Assembly: GCA_012365435.1 (NCBI GenBank)
Contig: GCA_012365435.1_4518.1
Reading direction: 5' to 3' (one strand)
DNA from: a phage
DNA: 64,000 nt
The notes below the pieces were generated by a model that had not been told where the DNA came from, ran no database searches, and saw only the letters and a list, made by a program, of their open reading frames with translations. Of the stretch, positions 2,741 to 48,705 are shown piece by piece; the first letter of the stretch is position 1, and every line of letters starts with the position of its first letter. A program made the position numbers and the translations under genes.

Positions 2741-4212
2741 GGTCCAAATACGTCTTCAAATGAATCCGCTTCTGTTTTATCAAAACGGAACCCTTTAATA
2801 ATTGGAAGGAAAATACCTACAGTACCTTCACGGCCTTTAGAATGAACCCAACCATTACATTCGCAATCAGCAATACGTCCAATCAATTTACCTTCATGAG
2901 CTTCAGCCATTAATCGTTCACGGTCTAAATCATGACGCTCATCTAAAGGAATAAGAACCTTTACACCATCAACTGTTTTATGAGTTGTATCTTTAAACCC
3001 TGAACCACAATCGGTTGTAATACGACGACAACGTGATACGAGTTCGACACCACCTAATTTGTTAGGGTCTTTAGAGTGTTCATAGTATCCTACAACTTCT
3101 AAAGCGATATCAATAACTTCTTTAAATTTAATTAGGTTCTTAGAGCGTTTGTTTTCCCAGTATGAATCACGGTTTTTAAGGATAATACCTTCAAGACCTT
3201 GGTCAACATATTTTTTATAAACCACTTTAGCTTCGTCAAGATTACGAACTAACTGATTTTCAATTGGCTCAATTCGCTTAAAGCCTTCAGCCATATTTTC
3301 AAGAGCAGCAAAACGAACATCGTATTTCTGACCTTTAATTTTGCCATCAGAGTAGACTTCATCTAAAGGAACATAGTCCCAGGCTTGAAGAACCATACCT
3401 TCCGCTTCTTTAGGAGAAATAGTCCCTTGAAGAGATTTATTTGCTAAACCATTTGAAGTGCTACGGTCTGCAACTTGTACTTCTTCGGATTCTTCATTAT
3501 CGCCAAATAAGAACGACAGGTCATTTCCTGAGCTCACAGCCTTTTTAATATCAAATGAATGATAAACTAATTCACCGTCGATTAAAACCCCATTAGGGTG
3601 TCTTTCACGAGCTTCTTTAGTCATTTCCATTAGTTCATCTGCTAATAGAGTAAGACCATGGTATTCGTTACCGGCACGAGAAAAGAATTGAACGCCATCA
3701 TCGCGAACTTCAGCGAAACAACGAGCACCATCTGCCTTTAATTGGGCAAATGCAGGCCATTTAATATTTTTAGTAATCAATTTCTCATCATATGCAGATG
3801 CTAACATCTGTGGCTGCAATTGAATAAGTCCAGGCCACACCTTATTCGCGATAGACACTGAAGCACCTACTTCAAGGTCTCGCATCATTACACGACGAAG
3901 GACTTCTACATCATCAGGTTTACCGTCAGCGATATAACCCATGAGCTCTTTAATTGCAGCATTACCAGTGAGTTTACGAGTGGCTAATGTGAACTCAATA
4001 AAATCCAACATGTCATCTAATTCAAGAAGACCATACGCTTGAGACCTTTCACCTGGTCCTGGCCATTTCTTAATATAATACTGGATACCACGTGCATATG
4101 TTAAACGATACACACGTTCAAGTAATTTGTTGTCCTTATTTTTCTTAAGGATTTCTTGTTTTGTTTTAGTAGAACCGATCGCAGCTATTTGGTTTAAAAT
4201 ATCTAAAATCAT
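2719..4212 (-). CDS. 30: ATP-dependent DNA ligase, 497 aa
   Basis: KxDG adenylation motif (KADGARCF), length and overall match to T4 gp30. Confidence 0.95.
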   Translation of the reverse strand: MILDILNQIAAIGSTKTKQEILKKNKDNKLLERVYRLTYARGIQYYIKKWPGPGERSQAYGLLELDDMLDFIEFTLATRKLTGNAAIKELMGYIADGKPDDVEVLRRVMMRDLEVGASVSIANKVWPGLIQLQPQMLASAYDEKLITKNIKWPAFAQLKADGARCFAEVRDDGVQFFSRAGNEYHGLTLLADELMEMTKEARERHPNGVLIDGELVYHSFDIKKAVSSGNDLSFLFGDNEESEEVQVADRSTSNGLANKSLQGTISPKEAEGMVLQAWDYVPLDEVYSDGKIKGQKYDVRFAALENMAEGFKRIEPIENQLVRNLDEAKVVYKKYVDQGLEGIILKNRDSYWENKRSKNLIKFKEVIDIALEVVGYYEHSKDPNKLGGVELVSRCRRITTDCGSGFKDTTHKTVDGVKVLIPLDERHDLDRERLMAEAHEGKLIGRIADCECNGWVHSKGREGTVGIFLPIIKGFRFDKTEADSFEDVFGPWSQTGL

Positions 4213-4478
4213 TTGATGTCCTCGATTTTGGTTACGGTTCTATTATAAGCCACTTCATCTAGAAGCGATTTAAGCGTTTTCTGATAGGTGGTAATCCATT
4301 TACCAAGCCCTTCAACGTAATATTCTGAAATGTAGATGAACCCTTGTTCAACACACTCTTTAAATATTTCTGCGTCTTTTACTGAACGAAACAATGGCCA
4401 GTCTCGAAAGAACATGTTAACATGGCCGTAGTCACGTGTGGTGTTTTTGCCATCTGTAATATCATGAACTACAAACAT
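4209..4478 (-). CDS. Hypothetical protein, 89 aa (30.1 position)
   Basis: ORF with ATGA overlap to ligase start. Confidence 0.5.
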   Translation of the reverse strand: MFVVHDITDGKNTTRDYGHVNMFFRDWPLFRSVKDAEIFKECVEQGFIYISEYYVEGLGKWITTYQKTLKSLLDEVAYNRTVTKIEDIK

Positions 4479-4487
4479 AATTGACCC

Positions 4488-5312
4488 TTAACAATTTATA
4501 GACCAAGTCCATTTAGACGAATCTAAAGGAAAGTTTTGAATCGTCCACCACGGCTGCATATCAGTTGGTCCTGGGGTTCGCCAGGTATATGGAGTACGTG
4601 TTGTCGAGGGGCCACCAATTTGATTAGGCCATGCACCTGGACTTGTTGCACCAGATTCTTTAAGTAAATCCGCCAATCGTTTTAAAAGGTCTTCACGATC
4701 TGAATCTGAATTATGCTTGGGTGGAACCAAACGAGATTCAATATCATCCCATGTGTGTACACGTTGTGCAGTGCGAGGAATATCATCACGTTCACCACGA
4801 GCCAACCAATAAATCGGTACATTAAGAATTTCTGCCGCATGGTCACAGTGATGAGCTAAATCGTCAACGTAACAAATCACGTTATATTTTGTTTTAGCTA
4901 GTTCGAATAATTGTTCCTTTGAAGAATCATGACCACACATCATTACTTCAGAAAAGGCGCCTGGGAACAAAGCATTCAAATTAAATTGTCTATTCAATCG
5001 AGCATCAATTGAATCACCTAGCGCCGTCACGGCTACAAAATTATAGTCTTCTTTTAGTTTATTGATAACTCGAAGAGCATCCGAATAAGGCGCTAAGTAA
5101 CGAATAAAATCAGAGCGATTATATTTTTCTATTAATTGTTTACCGAGGTTATCATCGGTATTGAATAGTTTACCAGGAGAAATAAATTTTTCGTCCTGAA
5201 TCATTTTTAAAATATGTTCTAATGGAAGATTATATTTTTGGGCAAAATAAGGAAGTCCAGATTGCCAGCTTAAACATACACCATCAATATCAGTCAAAAT
5301 AGTAGGCTTCAT
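4488..5312 (-). CDS. HAD-superfamily hydrolase-like protein with low-complexity P/W/T-rich C-terminal tail, 274 aa
   Basis: N-terminal DIDGV (HAD motif I), later VDD (motif IV); last ~80 aa compositionally unusual. Confidence 0.6.
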   Translation of the reverse strand: MKPTILTDIDGVCLSWQSGLPYFAQKYNLPLEHILKMIQDEKFISPGKLFNTDDNLGKQLIEKYNRSDFIRYLAPYSDALRVINKLKEDYNFVAVTALGDSIDARLNRQFNLNALFPGAFSEVMMCGHDSSKEQLFELAKTKYNVICYVDDLAHHCDHAAEILNVPIYWLARGERDDIPRTAQRVHTWDDIESRLVPPKHNSDSDREDLLKRLADLLKESGATSPGAWPNQIGGPSTTRTPYTWRTPGPTDMQPWWTIQNFPLDSSKWTWSINC

Positions 5313-8950: not shown

Positions 8951-9007
8951 CTTATTTCCTTGTTGTTTGACGATAGATTAATAATACCATACTATTCGTA
9001 AAGCATA

Positions 9008-9316
9008 TTACATAAGAAGCAAACGTTCTACCGGAGTACCATCAACCGAAATTACTTTATCAAGGCGGAAAGAACGCCACTGACCTAACTTGGTATCGAA
9101 TGCTCGAACTAATTCACGAGGTTCAGAACGAACTTCTGTTGCCGGATTGTTATTTTCGTATTTGACTTCAAGTTCATCACGGGAGGCAAACATCGTACGA
9201 ACATCGCCGTTAGCCTTTTCAAATACAACACAATGAACGCCTACAGACAGAATAGTTTTAATACGTTCACGAAGAACCATAGTTTCTTGTTCAGTTAAAA
9301 TCATATTATTCACCAC
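9008..9316 (-). CDS. Hypothetical protein, 102 aa
   Basis: ORF between cd and gene 31. Confidence 0.5.
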   Translation of the reverse strand: MVNNMILTEQETMVLRERIKTILSVGVHCVVFEKANGDVRTMFASRDELEVKYENNNPATEVRSEPRELVRAFDTKLGQWRSFRLDKVISVDGTPVERLLLM

Positions 9317-9887
9317 AAAAGTTTCGGATTTGTTCCCAATTCAGAGAACGAAGATTATTACGAGAGTACTGAATTACTTCAATACCGGCTTGTTTAAGAA
9401 TGTCTGCCCAATTTTCAGGAGATCGGTCATATAATTCTGCATATACAACCTTTTTAATACCTGACTGTGTAATAGCTTTAGTGCAATCAGGACATGGAGA
9501 AAGCGTCGTATATAACGTAGCACCTTCAATAGAATTACCTTTACGAGCGGCAAACAAAATTGCGTTCAATTCTGCATGGATTTCATTATTAGCAGACCAT
9601 GCACTATGAGCAGCTCGGTGTTCTTTAGCCAAAACAAAATTATCGGCCCGTCCAAATGCTGTAGTGCCTTCTTTATGTCCAGCAATGATGACTGGGATTG
9701 GTTTATTCTTCAACCAACCATTTTCAGATGCATGTTCGCAACAGTTAACGCCACCTGCGGGTGAACCATTATATCCAGTAGAGATAATGCGCCCATCTTT
9801 TTCAATGACGGCGCCAACTTTCCATGAACAACACTTTGATTCTTGAGAAATCAGATATGCAATCTGAAGGTATGTGCTAGCTTTCAT
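9306..9887 (-). CDS. cd: dCMP deaminase, 193 aa
   Basis: HAE...PC..C zinc-binding cytidine/dCMP deaminase motifs (HAELNAI, CPDC); same length as T4 Cd. Confidence 0.92.
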   Translation of the reverse strand: MKASTYLQIAYLISQESKCCSWKVGAVIEKDGRIISTGYNGSPAGGVNCCEHASENGWLKNKPIPVIIAGHKEGTTAFGRADNFVLAKEHRAAHSAWSANNEIHAELNAILFAARKGNSIEGATLYTTLSPCPDCTKAITQSGIKKVVYAELYDRSPENWADILKQAGIEVIQYSRNNLRSLNWEQIRNFCGE

Positions 9888-10879
9888 TATTGAACCTTAT
9901 TAATATAAGTTAACAGCTCTTTAGTTTGTTCCCAACTGATGCACGCATCGGTAACGGAAACGCCATAGGACATATTATCAGAAATTTTTTGATTTCCTTC
10001 ATGTAGGAACGATTCTATCATAATTCCTTTGACCAAATCATTAGCTGCTAAATTTTTACCAATACCAATTTGATTGCTATAATGCCCATCAGCGTTTGCA
10101 TGGCTACAGTCAACCATTACATAATGATTCAGACCTACTGCCCTTGCTTTGTTAGAAGCTTCTTGAATATCAGAAGAATGATAGTTCGGGCCGTTGGTCC
10201 CGCCACGCAATACGATATGCGTATTCTGATTACCTTCAGCTTCAACAATGCCTACAGTACCATCGACGTCCATACCCATATACCGATGAGGCCAGGCGGC
10301 ACTATACATCGCGTCTGTAGCTACTTTAATAGAACCATTGGTTGCGTTCTTGAAGCCTACGCACATCGGTAGACCTGAAGCAATTTCACGATGTGTCTGA
10401 CTTTCAGTCGTACGGGCGCCAATAGCAACCCATGAGAAAATACCAGAAAGATACTTAATCGTGAATGGGTCTAATACTTCAGTTGCTAATGGAAGTCCCA
10501 TACGTAGAAGTTTACGACACAATGTTCGTGCAACTATAAGACCGTGGTTCATATCAAAACTTCCGTCAAGATATGGATCATTTACAAGACCTTTCCAACC
10601 TACGGTAGTTCGAGGCTTTTCAAAATAAACGCGCATCACTAACAGAACATTAGGAAGACGAGTTTGAAGTTCAGCCAGACGTTTGCCGTATTCAACAGCA
10701 GCAATAGGGTCATGAATTGAACAAGGACCTACAACAATAAGTTTGCGTGGGTCTTCACCGTTCATAATCGAATTAACTTGTTCGCGATGAGAAGCCACTT
10801 GTGATGCGTAAGCTTCCGACAAAGGAATAATCTCAGCCAGTTCTTTTGGAGAAATAAGTTTTCTGATGACAGGTAACAT
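9887..10879 (-). CDS. 3-deoxy-D-arabino-heptulosonate-7-phosphate (DAHP) synthase, class I (AroG-like), 330 aa
   Basis: GPCSIHDP, MRVYFEKPRTTVGWKGL and AIGARTTESQ.HRE.ASGL blocks nearly identical to E. coli AroG. Confidence 0.85.
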   Translation of the reverse strand: MLPVIRKLISPKELAEIIPLSEAYASQVASHREQVNSIMNGEDPRKLIVVGPCSIHDPIAAVEYGKRLAELQTRLPNVLLVMRVYFEKPRTTVGWKGLVNDPYLDGSFDMNHGLIVARTLCRKLLRMGLPLATEVLDPFTIKYLSGIFSWVAIGARTTESQTHREIASGLPMCVGFKNATNGSIKVATDAMYSAAWPHRYMGMDVDGTVGIVEAEGNQNTHIVLRGGTNGPNYHSSDIQEASNKARAVGLNHYVMVDCSHANADGHYSNQIGIGKNLAANDLVKGIMIESFLHEGNQKISDNMSYGVSVTDACISWEQTKELLTYINKVQ

Positions 10880-10999
10880 AACAATCCTTAGGAGATATAA
10901 ACAGATTCTGATTCAACAATACCTTTAACCGGATTAGATAGGCTAAGTTGGTAGTGCTCAGATTTATGACCATTCTCGATAGTAATGAGATAGCTCTCA

Positions 11000-11236
11000 T
11001 TATAGTGTTCCATATACTCGAGTTGCTTCAACAAGACCATCACTGCCTAATTTAAGATTAGTAATTTGGTCACCATCTTTAGGATTAACGATTATGAGAA
11101 AAGAACGTGGAGATTCTTGAATAACTCGTAATGTTGCATCTTGGAAACGTTCAGACACTTTATTGATGAGTGCTTGAGCAAATTCTTTTACTTTAATCTG
11201 AAATTCGTGTACTGTGATTGGGTTTTCACTTAGCAT
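11000..11236 (-). CDS. Hypothetical protein, 78 aa
   Basis: ORF downstream of PeSL-like promoter. Confidence 0.45.
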   Translation of the reverse strand: MLSENPITVHEFQIKVKEFAQALINKVSERFQDATLRVIQESPRSFLIIVNPKDGDQITNLKLGSDGLVEATRVYGTL

Positions 11237-11262
11237 TTCTATTTCCTCATTTGTTGGTAGAG

Positions 11263-11294
11263 TTATAGTATCACAACTCCACCATGTTGTAAAC
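11263..11294 (-). promoter_or_regulatory. Early promoter (PeSL-like)
   Basis: - strand GTTTAC, spacer, CTATAA. Confidence 0.45.
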
Positions 11295-11296
11295 CA

Positions 11297-11572
11297 TTAA
11301 ATTGCTTTGCATTCAATTTTTTGTGTACTGAAATTGATATCACATTGGATAACTAAATCGCCGTCAAGATCAAATACCACTATGACGTGTGCAGACCCAG
11401 GGAGAAGAGTAATAGCAATAGAATCTACTTGGTCTGGGAGCAAAGCATTGAGTACATGAGTTAGTTGAGCATGAACTCTGAGTTCGGCCGCATTATCAAG
11501 CACTTCAAACATATTATTAGCAATAATCTGACTGAAGACTACCTTTACAATTTCAGAATAAGTTGGGAACAT
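11297..11572 (-). CDS. Hypothetical protein, 91 aa
   Basis: ORF. Confidence 0.45.
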   Translation of the reverse strand: MFPTYSEIVKVVFSQIIANNMFEVLDNAAELRVHAQLTHVLNALLPDQVDSIAITLLPGSAHVIVVFDLDGDLVIQCDINFSTQKIECKAI

Positions 11573-11579
11573 AATTACC

Positions 11580-11804
11580 TCAGTGTACAGTATTTACTTT
11601 AACTCGAACAACAAATCGCTCGGTCGGTTCACCTACAGGAACAAACTCTACATGATATTCGCCTTTGTAACGAGTATTCAGATCATTACGAATTCCTGCG
11701 AGTTTGTTGATTAATGTAGGACTCATATTAAGTCCCACTAGTTTACGAAGCATTTTGTATGCTTCATCTTCGATTTCATGATGTTTATCGTACATAGTTT
11801 TCAT
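11580..11804 (-). CDS. Hypothetical protein, 74 aa
   Basis: ORF. Confidence 0.45.
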   Translation of the reverse strand: MKTMYDKHHEIEDEAYKMLRKLVGLNMSPTLINKLAGIRNDLNTRYKGEYHVEFVPVGEPTERFVVRVKVNTVH

Positions 11805-11975
11805 TTAACCATTCAATTGCCTGGTCGACGTTATCAAATATACCACCGTCCAAACGTTCTTCATGCTCATAGTCCAGCACATCAATACCGAACTGTCCAT
11901 TTACTAAAGGCCAGGCTACAAACAAATATTCTTTATGCTGTTCGATGGCCTCAATCACTTCATATAATCGTTTCA

Positions 11976-11976
<1 letters not shown>
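11785..11976 (-). CDS. Hypothetical protein, 63 aa
   Basis: ORF with ATGA-type overlap to pseT stop. Confidence 0.4.
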
Positions 11977-13062
<1,086 letters not shown>

Positions 13063-47604: not shown

Positions 47605-48705
47605 TTACGCTGTGAAGATTTTATCCCACATCGCAACAACTGCATCTCGATTATACTTCTTCCATACTGCTTCAGCACGTTTAACTCGAGCTTCGTATGT
47701 GTCAGTGAATTCTAATACAGCTTTTGTGTAAAGCGCAACTACTTCTTTCTTAGGAGTAGAGGAATCAATTTCTACACGCACAGTATCTGGGTCGTATTCG
47801 AATGTAGCATGAGGATAATCCTTAAAAACTAACTGGATTACAGGGACACCTTTAGAGATGGCTTCAATAGAACTATTCTCTACCGTGCCTGTGTCAGGAC
47901 ACGTATTAATAAGTGCTTTAGCTGTTTTAAGACGTTCCATGATTTCACTGTGTGGAGCATCAATAATAACAGGATATTTAGCTGGTGGTGCCCATTTGCT
48001 TGGACAATAACCAATACCATTTTCGCCTAGTGCTTTAATTGCTTCAAGAGCAACATCAGTGCGACGCATCTTAGTGTCATAACGTTGAGCACTAATAATC
48101 AAATCAGTTGCCGGGAGAACTTCTGGCTTTTCAGACAAACAAATAACCGGGTAGTCATCAGGTTCAAATAATGGATTTTCACGCCAGTAGTCATAATCAA
48201 TTTTGTCAGTAAGAGCTGAAGTCATATGACAATATTTACGTTCAAATTCACGGAATGCTTTAGTAGGAGCATAGCTCTTCCCACCGTTCTTGTGAATCTG
48301 GATAGTCTGATCCCAAATTTGAACAATACCACGAGACACCGGTTCAAACGGCGTAGCCATAAAATTCTTATGAACTTTAGAGAGTCCAGCATCTTTAATT
48401 GCTTGGACAGTTAGTTTAGTCGGTTCCATAGTAACAACAAAATCGTATTCATGGATGCCGGCTAGTTCAACAATCTTACGAGCCATAGTATAACTCATAC
48501 CTAGACTGAATTTAGTCAGATGACCAACAGGATGATGATTAACCTTCCAATCACCAAATGTGTCATTATCAAAACCGATATAATCAATATCGGCACCGAT
48601 AGAAACTAAATATTTCAACACATTTAAATGTACTGCTTCAAGACCACCTTGTACACGTTCTGGGTTAAATGGGACCGCACGAGATGGGATAAACATAACT
48701 TTCAT
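47605..48705 (-). CDS. GT-B-like glycosyltransferase, candidate DNA (hydroxymethylcytosine) arabinosyl/glycosyltransferase, 366 aa
   Basis: N-terminal MKVMFIP...GGLEAVHLNVLKYL and C-terminal TGTVENSSIEAISKGVPVI resemble GT-B (GT1/GT4-like) motifs; occupies the rIIA.1-39 interval where RB69 is recalled to carry its putative arabinosyltransferase. Confidence 0.55.
   Translation of the reverse strand: MKVMFIPSRAVPFNPERVQGGLEAVHLNVLKYLVSIGADIDYIGFDNDTFGDWKVNHHPVGHLTKFSLGMSYTMARKIVELAGIHEYDFVVTMEPTKLTVQAIKDAGLSKVHKNFMATPFEPVSRGIVQIWDQTIQIHKNGGKSYAPTKAFREFERKYCHMTSALTDKIDYDYWRENPLFEPDDYPVICLSEKPEVLPATDLIISAQRYDTKMRRTDVALEAIKALGENGIGYCPSKWAPPAKYPVIIDAPHSEIMERLKTAKALINTCPDTGTVENSSIEAISKGVPVIQLVFKDYPHATFEYDPDTVRVEIDSSTPKKEVVALYTKAVLEFTDTYEARVKRAEAVWKKYNRDAVVAMWDKIFTA

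Follow-up and report, generated by a model that had tools for sequence, protein, structure and literature searches.

Why does a T4-like coliphage carry its own gene for the enzyme that opens the shikimate pathway, and is that enzyme restrained by the same end products as its bacterial relatives? The question is raised by a locus in the genome of a Mosigvirus, a T4-like coliphage, of which we analysed one stretch of 64,000 nucleotides (GenBank assembly GCA_012365435.1; hereafter, the window). The gene is not new, because it is already annotated in about 200 phage records, has a family in PHROGs and was listed in a 2020 preprint as an auxiliary metabolic gene with function unknown (Olsen et al. 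2020, bioRxiv 10.1101/2020.01.19.911818); the first-pass annotation of the window was unaware of this wide annotation. Our literature searches on the enzymology and genetics of phage DAHP synthase gave nothing beyond two passing mentions, and it appears that the regulation of the phage enzyme and its use to the phage have never been asked about before.

A DAHP synthase gene between cd and cd.2

The gene lies between cd and cd.2/cd.3/pseT, just where the first-pass annotation had placed it. Also in agreement with that annotation, T4 has only a small ORF in this slot, cd.1 (112 aa). The locus comprises the following features:

9306..9887, minus strand: cd (dCMP deaminase; Pfam dCMP_cyt_deam_1, E=1.5e-26), with an ATG overlapping the DAHP synthase stop (TAATG)
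9878..9890, minus strand: right direct repeat, ATAATGAAAGCTA, at the DAHP synthase stop and cd start (RB69 alignments)
9887..10879, minus strand: DAHP synthase gene, 330 aa, ATG start, uninterrupted ORF; class I-alpha, AroF-type lineage, remodelled allosteric site
10885..10889, minus strand: Shine-Dalgarno sequence AAGGA, 5 nt upstream of the ATG at 10879, overlapping the stop of the preceding small ORF
10888..11013, minus strand: small ORF, 41 aa from the ATG at 11013, within a 1113-bp segment (phrog_15876, E=4e-32)
10991..11003, minus strand: left direct repeat, ATAATGAGAGCTA, bounding the 1113-bp segment (RB69 alignments)
11000..11236, minus strand: cd.2 homologue (DUF7320; Pfam PF24005, E=1.5e-35; phrog_1504; RB69 and T4 cd.2 annotations)
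11265..11293, minus strand: early-promoter-like site, TTTACA, 17 nt, TACTAT, with an upstream TG (consensus scan)

The 330-aa product matches Pfam PF00793 (DAHP_synth_1) at full length (profile positions 8-269 of 270; E=5.2e-75; 252 bits, cutoff 25.5), passes the NCBIfam model TIGR00034 (aroFGH) with 428.5 bits against a cutoff of 173.2 and belongs to phrog_5045 (E=2.5e-182). Its closest sequence match in the PDB is E. coli AroF (6agm; E=4e-105, residues 8-327). The hallmark blocks GPCSIHD, EKPRTTVGWKG, GARTTESQ, GFKN, LRGG, DCSH, IES and TDAC are all found in the protein. In the active site, we checked by alignment the metal ligands (Cys61, His268, Glu302 and Asp326 in AroG numbering), the PEP ligands (Arg92, Lys97, Gly163-Ala164-Arg165, Lys186 and Arg234) and the erythrose-4-phosphate (E4P) motif Lys97-Pro98-Arg99-Thr100. 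None was missing: C53, R83, K88, P89, R90, T91, G154, A155, R156, K177, R225, H260, E289 and D311 of the phage protein make up an intact set (14/14), which does not vary between the window protein and its counterparts in five further phage genera. The AF2 model (pLDDT 91.8, pTM 0.92) superimposes on the solved N. meningitidis and E. coli DAHP synthases with a TM of 0.95 and an rmsd of 1.7 A; it predicts a (beta/alpha)8 barrel with an inserted beta6a/beta6b hairpin (strands 198-203 and 209-214). The earlier call of a class I DAHP synthase was correct, and the ORF encodes a genuine class I-alpha enzyme, which from its residues is expected to convert PEP and E4P to DAHP and Pi. An assembly chimera is ruled out, because about 140 phage genomes, sequenced independently, have the same gene at the same locus with a protein identity of at least 95%.

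The TAATG overlap suggests that DAHP synthase and cd are translationally coupled; the two genes are also adjacent, with a gap of 0-2 nt, in Kanagawavirus and Marfavirus. In the record of phage Mizar, a ribosome-binding site is annotated at the same place as ours. The small ORF upstream matches phrog_1504 (the cd.2 family) weakly (E=1.6e-5) and shares 51% identity over 39 aa with Entb_45 cd.2, and only 30% with the phage's own cd.2; by these matches, it is what is left of a Kanagawavirus-like cd.2, derived from the C-terminal half.

Between the early-promoter-like site and the start of the DAHP synthase gene there are about 390 nt, and the cd.2 homologue is the first gene downstream of the site. 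A generic sigma-70 scan found 18 sites, compared with 17.3 in shuffles, and is uninformative alone; therefore, the promoter call is based on orthology to the early promoter Pe133295, which the T4 record places between cd.2 and cd.3. As the -35 GTTTAC and -10 TGATAYTAT elements are conserved in an alignment of T4, RB69 and the window, we regard the site as the orthologue of Pe133295. The string cd.2 - small ORF - DAHP synthase - cd would be transcribed from it before replication.

Ancestry and distribution of the phage gene

The protein had been described as AroG-like and nearly identical to AroG. The near identity holds for the hallmark blocks and fails overall, the protein being 51% identical to AroF, 47% to AroG and 44% to AroH. 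The AroG assignment itself has to be abandoned: the phage protein reaches only 364.5 bits with the AroG equivalog NF006723, which requires 568 and gives 739.5 for E. coli AroG, and the AroH model NF009396 also fails (386.7 bits, cutoff 463), whereas the AroF-type subfamily NF009395 is passed with 455.9 bits (cutoff 343). Moreover, G202 of the phage protein aligns with G212 of AroF and with S211 of AroG, and AroH also has Ser there. The phage clade is monophyletic in 100/100 bootstraps, and AroG enters its sister group in 0/100.

A recent transfer from a host is rejected, given that the closest bacterial sequences reach only 50-55% identity, none of them standing out as the donor, and that the GC3 of the gene (0.30) is phage-like, matching that of the neighbouring genes. 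With dN/dS of 0.145 at dS 0.71, the gene is under purifying selection. The phage enzyme is best explained as the descendant of a bacterial enzyme of AroF type that T4-like phages acquired once, long ago. The first-pass annotation was also right in viewing a class I DAHP synthase within the early cd-pseT string as an auxiliary metabolic gene; the PHROG category of phrog_5045 is 'moron, auxiliary metabolic gene and host takeover'.

GenBank entries named 'phospho-2-dehydro-3-deoxyheptonate aldolase' come from Mosigvirus, Kanagawavirus, Marfavirus, Winklervirus and Bragavirus, and proteins 100% identical to ours are on record for phages NBG1 and AV117. The phage can do without the gene, since exactly the 1113-bp segment that contains it is missing from RB69 and about five other Mosigviruses. 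About 85% of cd-bearing T4-like records never had the gene; a separate gp43 tblastn counted 1536 T4-like records. Aeromonas phage HJ05 is the sole other phage case that we kept. Two further contigs were excluded because both look bacterial: in that of Acinetobacter phage MD-2021a, the gene is surrounded by cob genes, and MT837410, a gut 'Bacteriophage sp.' contig, carries an ABC transporter, MarR and a dehydroquinase-like ORF.

The inhibitor site

Alignment to AroG, AroF and AroH revealed that key residues of the feedback-inhibitor site are replaced or deleted in the phage enzyme. In AroG numbering, the replacements are P150 to I (phage I141), Q151 to K (K142), D155 to G (G146), S180 to P (P171) and F209 to Y (Y200), and the N-terminal segment that holds Asp6 and Asp7 in AroG is deleted. 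These features are common to the whole phage clade of about 30 members: K/R151, P180, G/N155 and Y209 are found in all of them, I150 in all but one, and the catalytic Cys is preceded by 48-52 residues in every member, as compared with 58-95 in 98 bacterial enzymes. In those 98 enzymes, the inhibitor-site residues are 93-100% conserved overall (Q151 100%, S180 99%, D155 97%, F209 99%).

The same positions emerged from an unbiased scan, in which we compared the phage clade with the ~98 bacterial enzymes at 329 aligned positions. Only six were clade-diagnostic (150, 151, 155, 180, 209 and 223); none of the six is in the active site, and five fall into a literature set of 14 inhibitor-site or feedback-resistance positions (hypergeometric P=3.8e-7). 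Compared with random positions, the changed pocket positions are better conserved among the phage enzymes (P=0.002). A remodelled site that has a function, possibly in binding a new effector, would explain this as well as a locked-open site would.

The AroG variants P150L, S180F, F209A/S and those at Q151 are feedback-resistant; S180 and Q151 contact the main chain of the inhibitor, and D155 stabilises the inhibitor site (PMC9529685). We also considered a loss of the salt-bridge partner of D155; the candidate, a Lys at AroG position 128 in our numbering, from which that of the paper differs by one, is only 45% conserved in bacteria. Asp6 and Asp7 are part of the Phe site, and an enzyme in which they are replaced retains over 80% of its activity at 0.5 mM Phe (PMC6520568). 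The segment deleted from the phage enzyme is the one that brings these two residues to the site of the neighbouring subunit.

Two of the changes have to be read with caution. P180 and a non-Gln residue at 151 are also natural to some bacterial enzymes, a subgroup with sequences from Acinetobacter and Nostocales (pocket type T150/A151/P180) that amounts to about 45% of the 117 bacterial relatives of the HJ05 enzyme; therefore, these two changes alone are no proof of a loss of regulation. On the supporting side, the HJ05 enzyme itself, independent and distant (38% identity), also keeps the catalytic set but has A150, H151, P155, P180 and V209.

Taken together, the remodelled pocket and the deleted Asp6/Asp7 segment indicate that the phage enzyme is most likely insensitive to Phe, Tyr and Trp by nature, so that the phage probably runs the shikimate pathway without the brake of its host. 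The earlier suggestion that the enzyme escapes host feedback inhibition thereby gains strong residue-level support from pocket changes across the clade. This remodelling of the regulatory site in a phage enzyme appears to be undescribed.

Possible roles and known counterparts

We favour the reading, with a probability of roughly 0.55, that the gene provides a competent AroF-derived enzyme, expressed early and insensitive to feedback, that sustains shikimate flux in infection. Such an enzyme would keep carbon entering the shikimate/chorismate pathway while the host AroG, AroF and AroH are feedback-inhibited or repressed and, if the analogy with T4 holds, are no longer resynthesised. What the phage would probably gain is a source of aromatic amino acids and of further compounds made from chorismate, to be used in its own production when nutrients are poor or unbalanced. 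The gain in amino-acid output is uncertain, because the downstream branch-point enzymes of the host stay feedback-controlled.

It is less probable that we are dealing with an ordinary extra isozyme, still feedback-regulated, which only increases the DAHP synthase capacity and in which the pocket changes only retune the affinity or specificity for Tyr, Phe or Trp. In its favour, the phage enzyme passes the AroF-type subfamily model and has the Tyr-type Gly at the AroG-211 position; the regulatory beta6a/beta6b hairpin is kept in the AF2 model, and bacterial enzymes combining P180 with A151 exist. However, six independent inhibitor-site elements, including Q151, S180 and the deleted Asp6/Asp7 segment, are changed together, and single changes at several such positions already abolish inhibition in the E. 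coli enzymes, which makes this reading unlikely.

Somewhat more doubtful is the broader proposition that the pocket (Lys151, Pro180, Gly155, Ile150, Tyr209 and the short N-terminus) forms a new regulatory site or interface for a phage signal, or else that the enzyme manages E4P and pentose-phosphate flux in arabinosylating phages. In the first of these versions, the allosteric pocket has been re-specified for another effector (chorismate or prephenate, a nucleotide or a phage protein), placing shikimate entry under a phage-specific signal. The remodelled positions have indeed been kept, to the extent quantified above, in a clade whose members share as little as 56% identity; the residues now found there have a specific chemistry (Lys at 151, Tyr at 209), and the gene is tightly coupled to cd. 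Yet this conservation could equally stem from structural packing where the subunits of the dimer meet, with the inhibitor site filled, and the phage protein, with its single Pfam domain in 330 aa, has no added regulatory domain. Taken by itself, a re-specified pocket seems to us improbable.

In the second version, the enzyme would serve to rewire central carbon metabolism instead of providing aromatics: the irreversible removal of E4P (and PEP) would pull the non-oxidative pentose-phosphate pathway towards pentose-5-phosphates, or the enzyme would compensate for a shortage of E4P. Such a shortage could come from the drain of ribulose-5-phosphate (Ru5P) for nucleotides and for arabinosylating 5-hydroxycytosine DNA. 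The window phage has an RB69 ORF003c-type arabinosyltransferase (47605-48705), and Ru5P is the starting point of the arabinose pathway, which is entered through a phage arabinose-5-phosphate isomerase (PMC13326640). Our first co-distribution test used the ORF003c transferase; it was too narrow, because this transferase is not universal among arabinosylating phages, and was repeated with the isomerase. Isomerase and DAHP synthase occur together in Mosigvirus, EcS1, CHI14, the Erwinia, Edwardsiella and Enterobacter phages, Proteus phiP4-3 and SdyM_006, and no T4-type (Tequatrovirus) record is among the DAHP synthase matches listed. Nevertheless, each gene occurs without the other. The isomerase is found without DAHP synthase in RB69, moha, JK36/42 and mar005P1 (about ten Mosigvirus records besides RB69), as well as in 57 Acinetobacter and 6 Yersinia phage records, and, of 25 Klebsiella phage records with DAHP synthase, at most about three have the isomerase (about 22 or more do not). 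In addition, the co-occurrence is dominated by one genus and confounded by shared ancestry, and an E4P sink costs seven carbons per pentose gained. This version is, to our mind, slightly more improbable than the preceding one.

The distribution survey among T4-like phages, as proposed in the first-pass annotation, thus yielded a partial, genus-level overlap with the isomerase, and neither gene requires the other. The link to sugar modification that had been envisaged there is not borne out, since RB69 and the Acinetobacter phages have the arabinose module without the gene and most Klebsiella carriers lack the isomerase. DNA arabinosylation does not require DAHP synthase, and a looser link is possible. 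We also considered a folate link via cytosine modification and rejected it, as the 5-hydroxy-dCMP synthase of these phages uses flavin, not folate.

The least probable reading by far, also raised at first, is a repurposed condensation in which PEP and arabinose-5-phosphate, or a different sugar phosphate, would give a sugar that is KDO8P-like or novel and serves to modify DNA or the surface. The phage makes arabinose-5-phosphate, and E. coli DAHP synthase(Phe) accepts five-carbon phosphates weakly. Against this reading, KPRT and every E4P and PEP ligand are invariant, the diagnostic positions avoid the active site, the top structure and sequence matches are all DAHP synthases, the isomerase and DAHP synthase distributions do not match, and the published arabinosylation pathway has no DAHP synthase step (PMC13326640).

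If a feedback-insensitive enzyme sustaining shikimate flux is the correct reading, Enterobacterales T4-like phages possess a DAHP synthase whose feedback resistance arose in nature, through selection and not through engineering. It would provide a clear example of how a virulent phage can override the allosteric control of a host biosynthesis, beyond supplying extra enzyme copies. It would also offer a ready-made enzyme for strains producing aromatic compounds, where engineered feedback-resistant AroG and AroF are standard, and a handle on the nutrients that limit phage yield in the gut and in wastewater. The question of fitness is directly testable with presence/absence variants in one genus (RB69, moha and JK36/42 versus about 140 carriers).

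Finally, we would like to compare the phage enzyme with known systems. Relative to phrog_5045 and the GenBank phage entries there is no difference, as they represent the same family; those entries hold a name only. KDO8P synthase (KdsA, PF00793, a user of arabinose-5-phosphate) has the superfamily and the PEP-aldol chemistry in common with the phage protein, which differs in having KPRT, the type I-alpha Cys/His/Glu/Asp metal site and the beta6a/6b hairpin; among the PDB and structure matches listed, there was no KDO8P synthase. The Phe-sensitive AroG (PDB 1KFL) shares the family and the active site (TM 0.95), whereas its D6, D7, P150, Q151, S180, F209 and S211 are all absent or different in the phage enzyme. 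AroF (PDB 6AGM/6AGL; NF009395) is the best sequence match and has the fold, length class and catalytic, metal, PEP and E4P residues in common with it. Unlike AroF, the phage enzyme is without about 9-10 N-terminal residues, has three short loop deletions and a shorter C-terminus, and carries Lys and Pro in place of the inhibitor-contacting Gln and Ser, Gly in place of Asp, Ile in place of Pro150 and Tyr in place of Phe209 (AroG numbering). The engineered enzymes (AroG P150L, S180F, Q151 variants, F209A/S and D6G-D7A, and AroF P148L) are altered at the same positions as the phage clade. In contrast to these, the phage changes, the effect of which is predicted, are natural, combined and of other chemistry (I, K, P, G and Y plus a deletion), and they have been fixed by selection over several genera.

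Identity and genomic setting of the phage DAHP synthase

Two open reading frames and a pair of repeats define the locus of interest:

9887..10879, minus strand: DAHP synthase ORF, 330 codons without interruption (direct ORF reading)
10888-11013, minus strand: small ORF, 41 aa, phrog_15876, just upstream of the DAHP synthase gene and inside a 1113-bp segment
11003-10991 and 9890-9878, minus strand: 13-nt direct repeat ATAATGA(G/A)AGCTA bounding the 1113-bp segment (RB69 alignment)

The ORF, its coordinates and its family are as the first-pass annotation had them. The Pfam profile DAHP_synth_1 covers the ORF end to end (E=5.2e-75), the protein passes the generic NCBIfam aroFGH equivalog (428 bits against a cutoff of 173), and solved class I-alpha DAHP synthases match it, E. 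coli AroF being the top hit (E=4e-105, residues 8-327). The confident AlphaFold2 model (pLDDT 91.8, pTM 0.92) superposes on solved DAHP synthases with a TM of 0.95 and an rmsd of 1.7 A. However, the wording "AroG-like" and "nearly identical" to AroG was too strong, since identity is 51% to AroF, 47% to AroG and 44% to AroH; the protein clears the AroF-type subfamily NF009395 (456 vs 343), while falling under the cutoffs of the AroG equivalog (364 vs 568) and of the AroH model (387 vs 463).

The gene is real, its family assignment is right, and it is already annotated and catalogued. By tblastn, 213 phage records contain the protein (140 at 95% identity or more), under the names phospho-2-dehydro-3-deoxyheptonate aldolase, DAHP synthase, aroF or AroG; in PHROGs it is phrog_5045, category "moron, auxiliary metabolic gene and host takeover". 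The Mosigvirus enzyme has been listed among auxiliary metabolic genes of unknown function (Olsen et al. 2020), and its domain is noted in the phiC120 genome paper; our literature search found no enzymology or genetics of this phage enzyme. Labels in the Mosigvirus records are inconsistent: the dCMP deaminase gene cd appears as tRNA-specific adenosine deaminase or ribD, DAHP synthase is a "hypothetical protein" in several, and a small cd.x ORF is a "tail fibers protein" in many related GenBank records.

The window belongs to a Mosigvirus genome (T4-like, Straboviridae), and its region 9000-12000 is 98-99% identical to many sequenced coliphages. The gene order on one strand is alt, ligase, 30.x, rIII, 31, 31.1, cd, DAHP synthase, small ORF, cd.2, cd.3, cd.4 and pseT onward. 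Where the window has DAHP synthase and the small ORF between cd and cd.2, the T4 record shows cd.1 alone, in agreement with the first-pass remark that only small cd.x ORFs lie there. The gp31.1 homologue 3' of cd (9008-9316, minus strand) carries a WYL_2 / Sm-like SH3 beta-barrel domain (PF10902, E=7.5e-10), and T4 gp31.1 has an SH3 beta-barrel annotation likewise.

A Shine-Dalgarno sequence, AAGGA, lies 5 nt ahead of the DAHP synthase ATG; at the other end, the stop of the gene and the cd start overlap (TAATG). In alignment, the stretch between cd.3 and cd.2 corresponds to the T4 region bearing the annotated early promoter Pe133295, with the -35 GTTTAC and the -10 TGATAYTAT kept, and no terminator-like site was found on that strand between this region and the gene. 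From the conserved promoter, the uninterrupted path and the overlap, we infer that DAHP synthase would be expressed early, pre-replicatively, along with cd. A further 55-aa ORF (10833-11000, minus strand) begins at an ATG within the left repeat and reads through the start of DAHP synthase in a different frame; its opening codons resemble the cd start (MRAIS vs MKAST), and it has no PHROG match. This ORF probably just results from the junction, but could influence translation initiation of DAHP synthase.

A remodelled inhibitor pocket and an intact active site

Across six phage genera, the metal ligands (C61, H268, E302, D326), the PEP ligands (R92, K97, G163-A164-R165, K186, R234) and the E4P motif K97-P98-R99-T100 are invariant (AroG numbering), so that none of the metal or PEP residues is missing, and nothing in the alignment suggests a change of substrate.

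By contrast with AroG, AroF and AroH, the host-type inhibitor site is not intact. The phage proteins begin about 10 residues later, which removes Asp6/Asp7 of AroG and Asn8 of AroF; 48-52 residues precede the catalytic Cys in all phage-clade members, against 58-95 in 98 bacterial enzymes. Asp6 and Asp7 are Phe-site residues, and enzymes in which they are replaced retain over 80% activity at 0.5 mM Phe (PMC6520568). The phage proteins also carry I150, K151, G155, P180, Y209 and A223, a pattern found in every clade member among the 120 best homologues with one exception each at 150, 151 and 155, while the 98 bacterial enzymes have Q151 (100%), S180 (99%), F209 (99%), D155 (97%) and P150 (93%). 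Scanning 329 aligned positions for those where at least 90% of the clade share one residue and at least 90% of the bacteria another yielded exactly these six positions, five of which fall within a 14-position literature set of inhibitor-site and feedback-resistance sites (hypergeometric P=3.8e-7). Q151 and S180 hold the inhibitor main chain, D155 stabilises the site, and P150L, S180F, F209A/S and Q151 variants are feedback-resistant (PMC9529685). Given these roles and this overlap, the changes fixed in the phage lineage have clustered at the regulatory pocket.

Among the clade members, these pocket positions vary less than randomly drawn ones do (permutation P=0.002). The pocket was remodelled and afterwards kept, which fits a locked unregulated enzyme and a new-function site alike. 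Most likely, this gene, which overlaps the cd start with its stop, is expressed early and encodes an enzyme that would have lost the host-type feedback site; such an enzyme would hold the shikimate pathway open during infection. We infer its activity, insensitivity and benefit, and the natural presence/absence polymorphism in Mosigvirus is a convenient system for probing all three.

Descent, distribution and DNA arabinosylation

The slot upstream of cd holds a DAHP synthase gene in five genera (identity to the window protein in brackets):

Mosigvirus
Kanagawavirus, Entb_45 and PEi20 (76%)
Marfavirus (67%)
Winklervirus CHI14 (66%)
Bragavirus PM2 (58%)

Set against about 1218 phage records with a T4-type cd, the DAHP synthase records give a carriage of about 15%. 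Two phage-filed records that swell the counts appear bacterial and were rejected: in "Acinetobacter phage MD-2021a" contig CAKLQH020000056.1, aroF adjoins cobS/cobT/cobU, and the "Bacteriophage sp." gut contig MT837410.1 carries an ABC transporter, MarR and a dehydroquinase-like ORF.

The phage enzymes form a single clade on a long stem (100/100 bootstraps), whose sister group is AroF in 42/100 bootstraps and AroG in 0/100. The closest bacterial enzymes are merely 50-55% identical, and no bacterial donor was identifiable among the homologues. Entb_45 and PEi20 give a dN/dS of 0.145, with dS unsaturated at 0.71, and GC3 (0.30) is in line with cd (0.26) and pseT (0.34). The gene has long been established in phage genomes, and purifying selection acts on it.

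RB69 (locus ~10250) equals the window less precisely the 1113-bp segment with the small ORF and DAHP synthase, so that cd.2 adjoins cd directly. This gene-free junction recurs in eleven Mosigvirus records (RB69 x2, ECO111 5-P, mar005P1 x5, JK42, moha, JK36), making the gene polymorphic within the genus; it is accessory whether RB69 represents a pre-insertion state or a later deletion. The small ORF is a relic of the cd.2 C-terminal half. Since it shares 51% identity over 39 aa with Kanagawavirus cd.2 and just 30% with cd.2 of the window phage, the segment looks imported by recombination from a Kanagawavirus-like relative.

The first-pass annotation also proposed a link to DNA sugar modification, for which one more feature matters:

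47605-48705, minus strand: RB69 ORF003c homologue, 366 aa, 97.5% identical to RB69 ORF003c

RB69 ORF003c is named beta-arabinosyltransferase 2; RB69-type DNA bears arabinosylated 5-hydroxycytosine, whose synthesis employs a flavin-dependent ThyA homologue and UDP-arabinose, which comes from ribulose-5-P through a phage arabinose-5-P isomerase (PMC13326640). Given the near-identical transferase, DNA of the window phage presumably carries this modification too. Because ORF003c homologues are restricted to Mosigvirus and Acinetobacter T4-like phages, they are a poor marker of arabinosylation, and we took the isomerase (262 records) as a better one. Both genes occur together in Mosigvirus, EcS1, CHI14, Erwinia, Edwardsiella and Enterobacter phages, Proteus phiP4-3 and SdyM_006, an overlap that may reflect shared ancestry in one Straboviridae branch. 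The isomerase occurs without DAHP synthase in RB69-type Mosigviruses and in 57 Acinetobacter and 6 Yersinia phage records, while Klebsiella phages give 25 DAHP synthase records against at most ~3 isomerase records. Neither gene needs the other, the published pathway contains no DAHP synthase (PMC13326640) and the substrate residues are invariant, so the proposed link is not supported; a link on the supply side, through E4P and the pentose-phosphate pathway, is of low probability.

Comparison with Aeromonas phage HJ05

The sole credible independent phage case is the unrelated Aeromonas phage HJ05 (OQ594355, 79 kb), whose DAHP synthase (3294-4562, 38% identity) directly follows a terminase-like ORF. 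About 45% of its 117 bacterial relatives (P0124-P0240), including Acinetobacter and Nostocales, form a subgroup with T150, A/G151 and P180; P180 and a non-Gln residue at 151 are therefore not phage-only, which bears on how P180 in the phage enzyme is read. In this subgroup, S146, T150, A/G151, M179, P180 and S223 replace the canonical inhibitor-site D, P, Q, L, S and T. Even among these 117 relatives, D/E155 (116/117) and F209 (115/117) are near-universal, yet HJ05 has altered both: its enzyme keeps the catalytic set and carries A150, H151, P155, P180 and V209, a pattern seen also in three metagenomic relatives (P0121-P0123). The HJ05 enzyme may represent a convergent remodelling of the inhibitor site.
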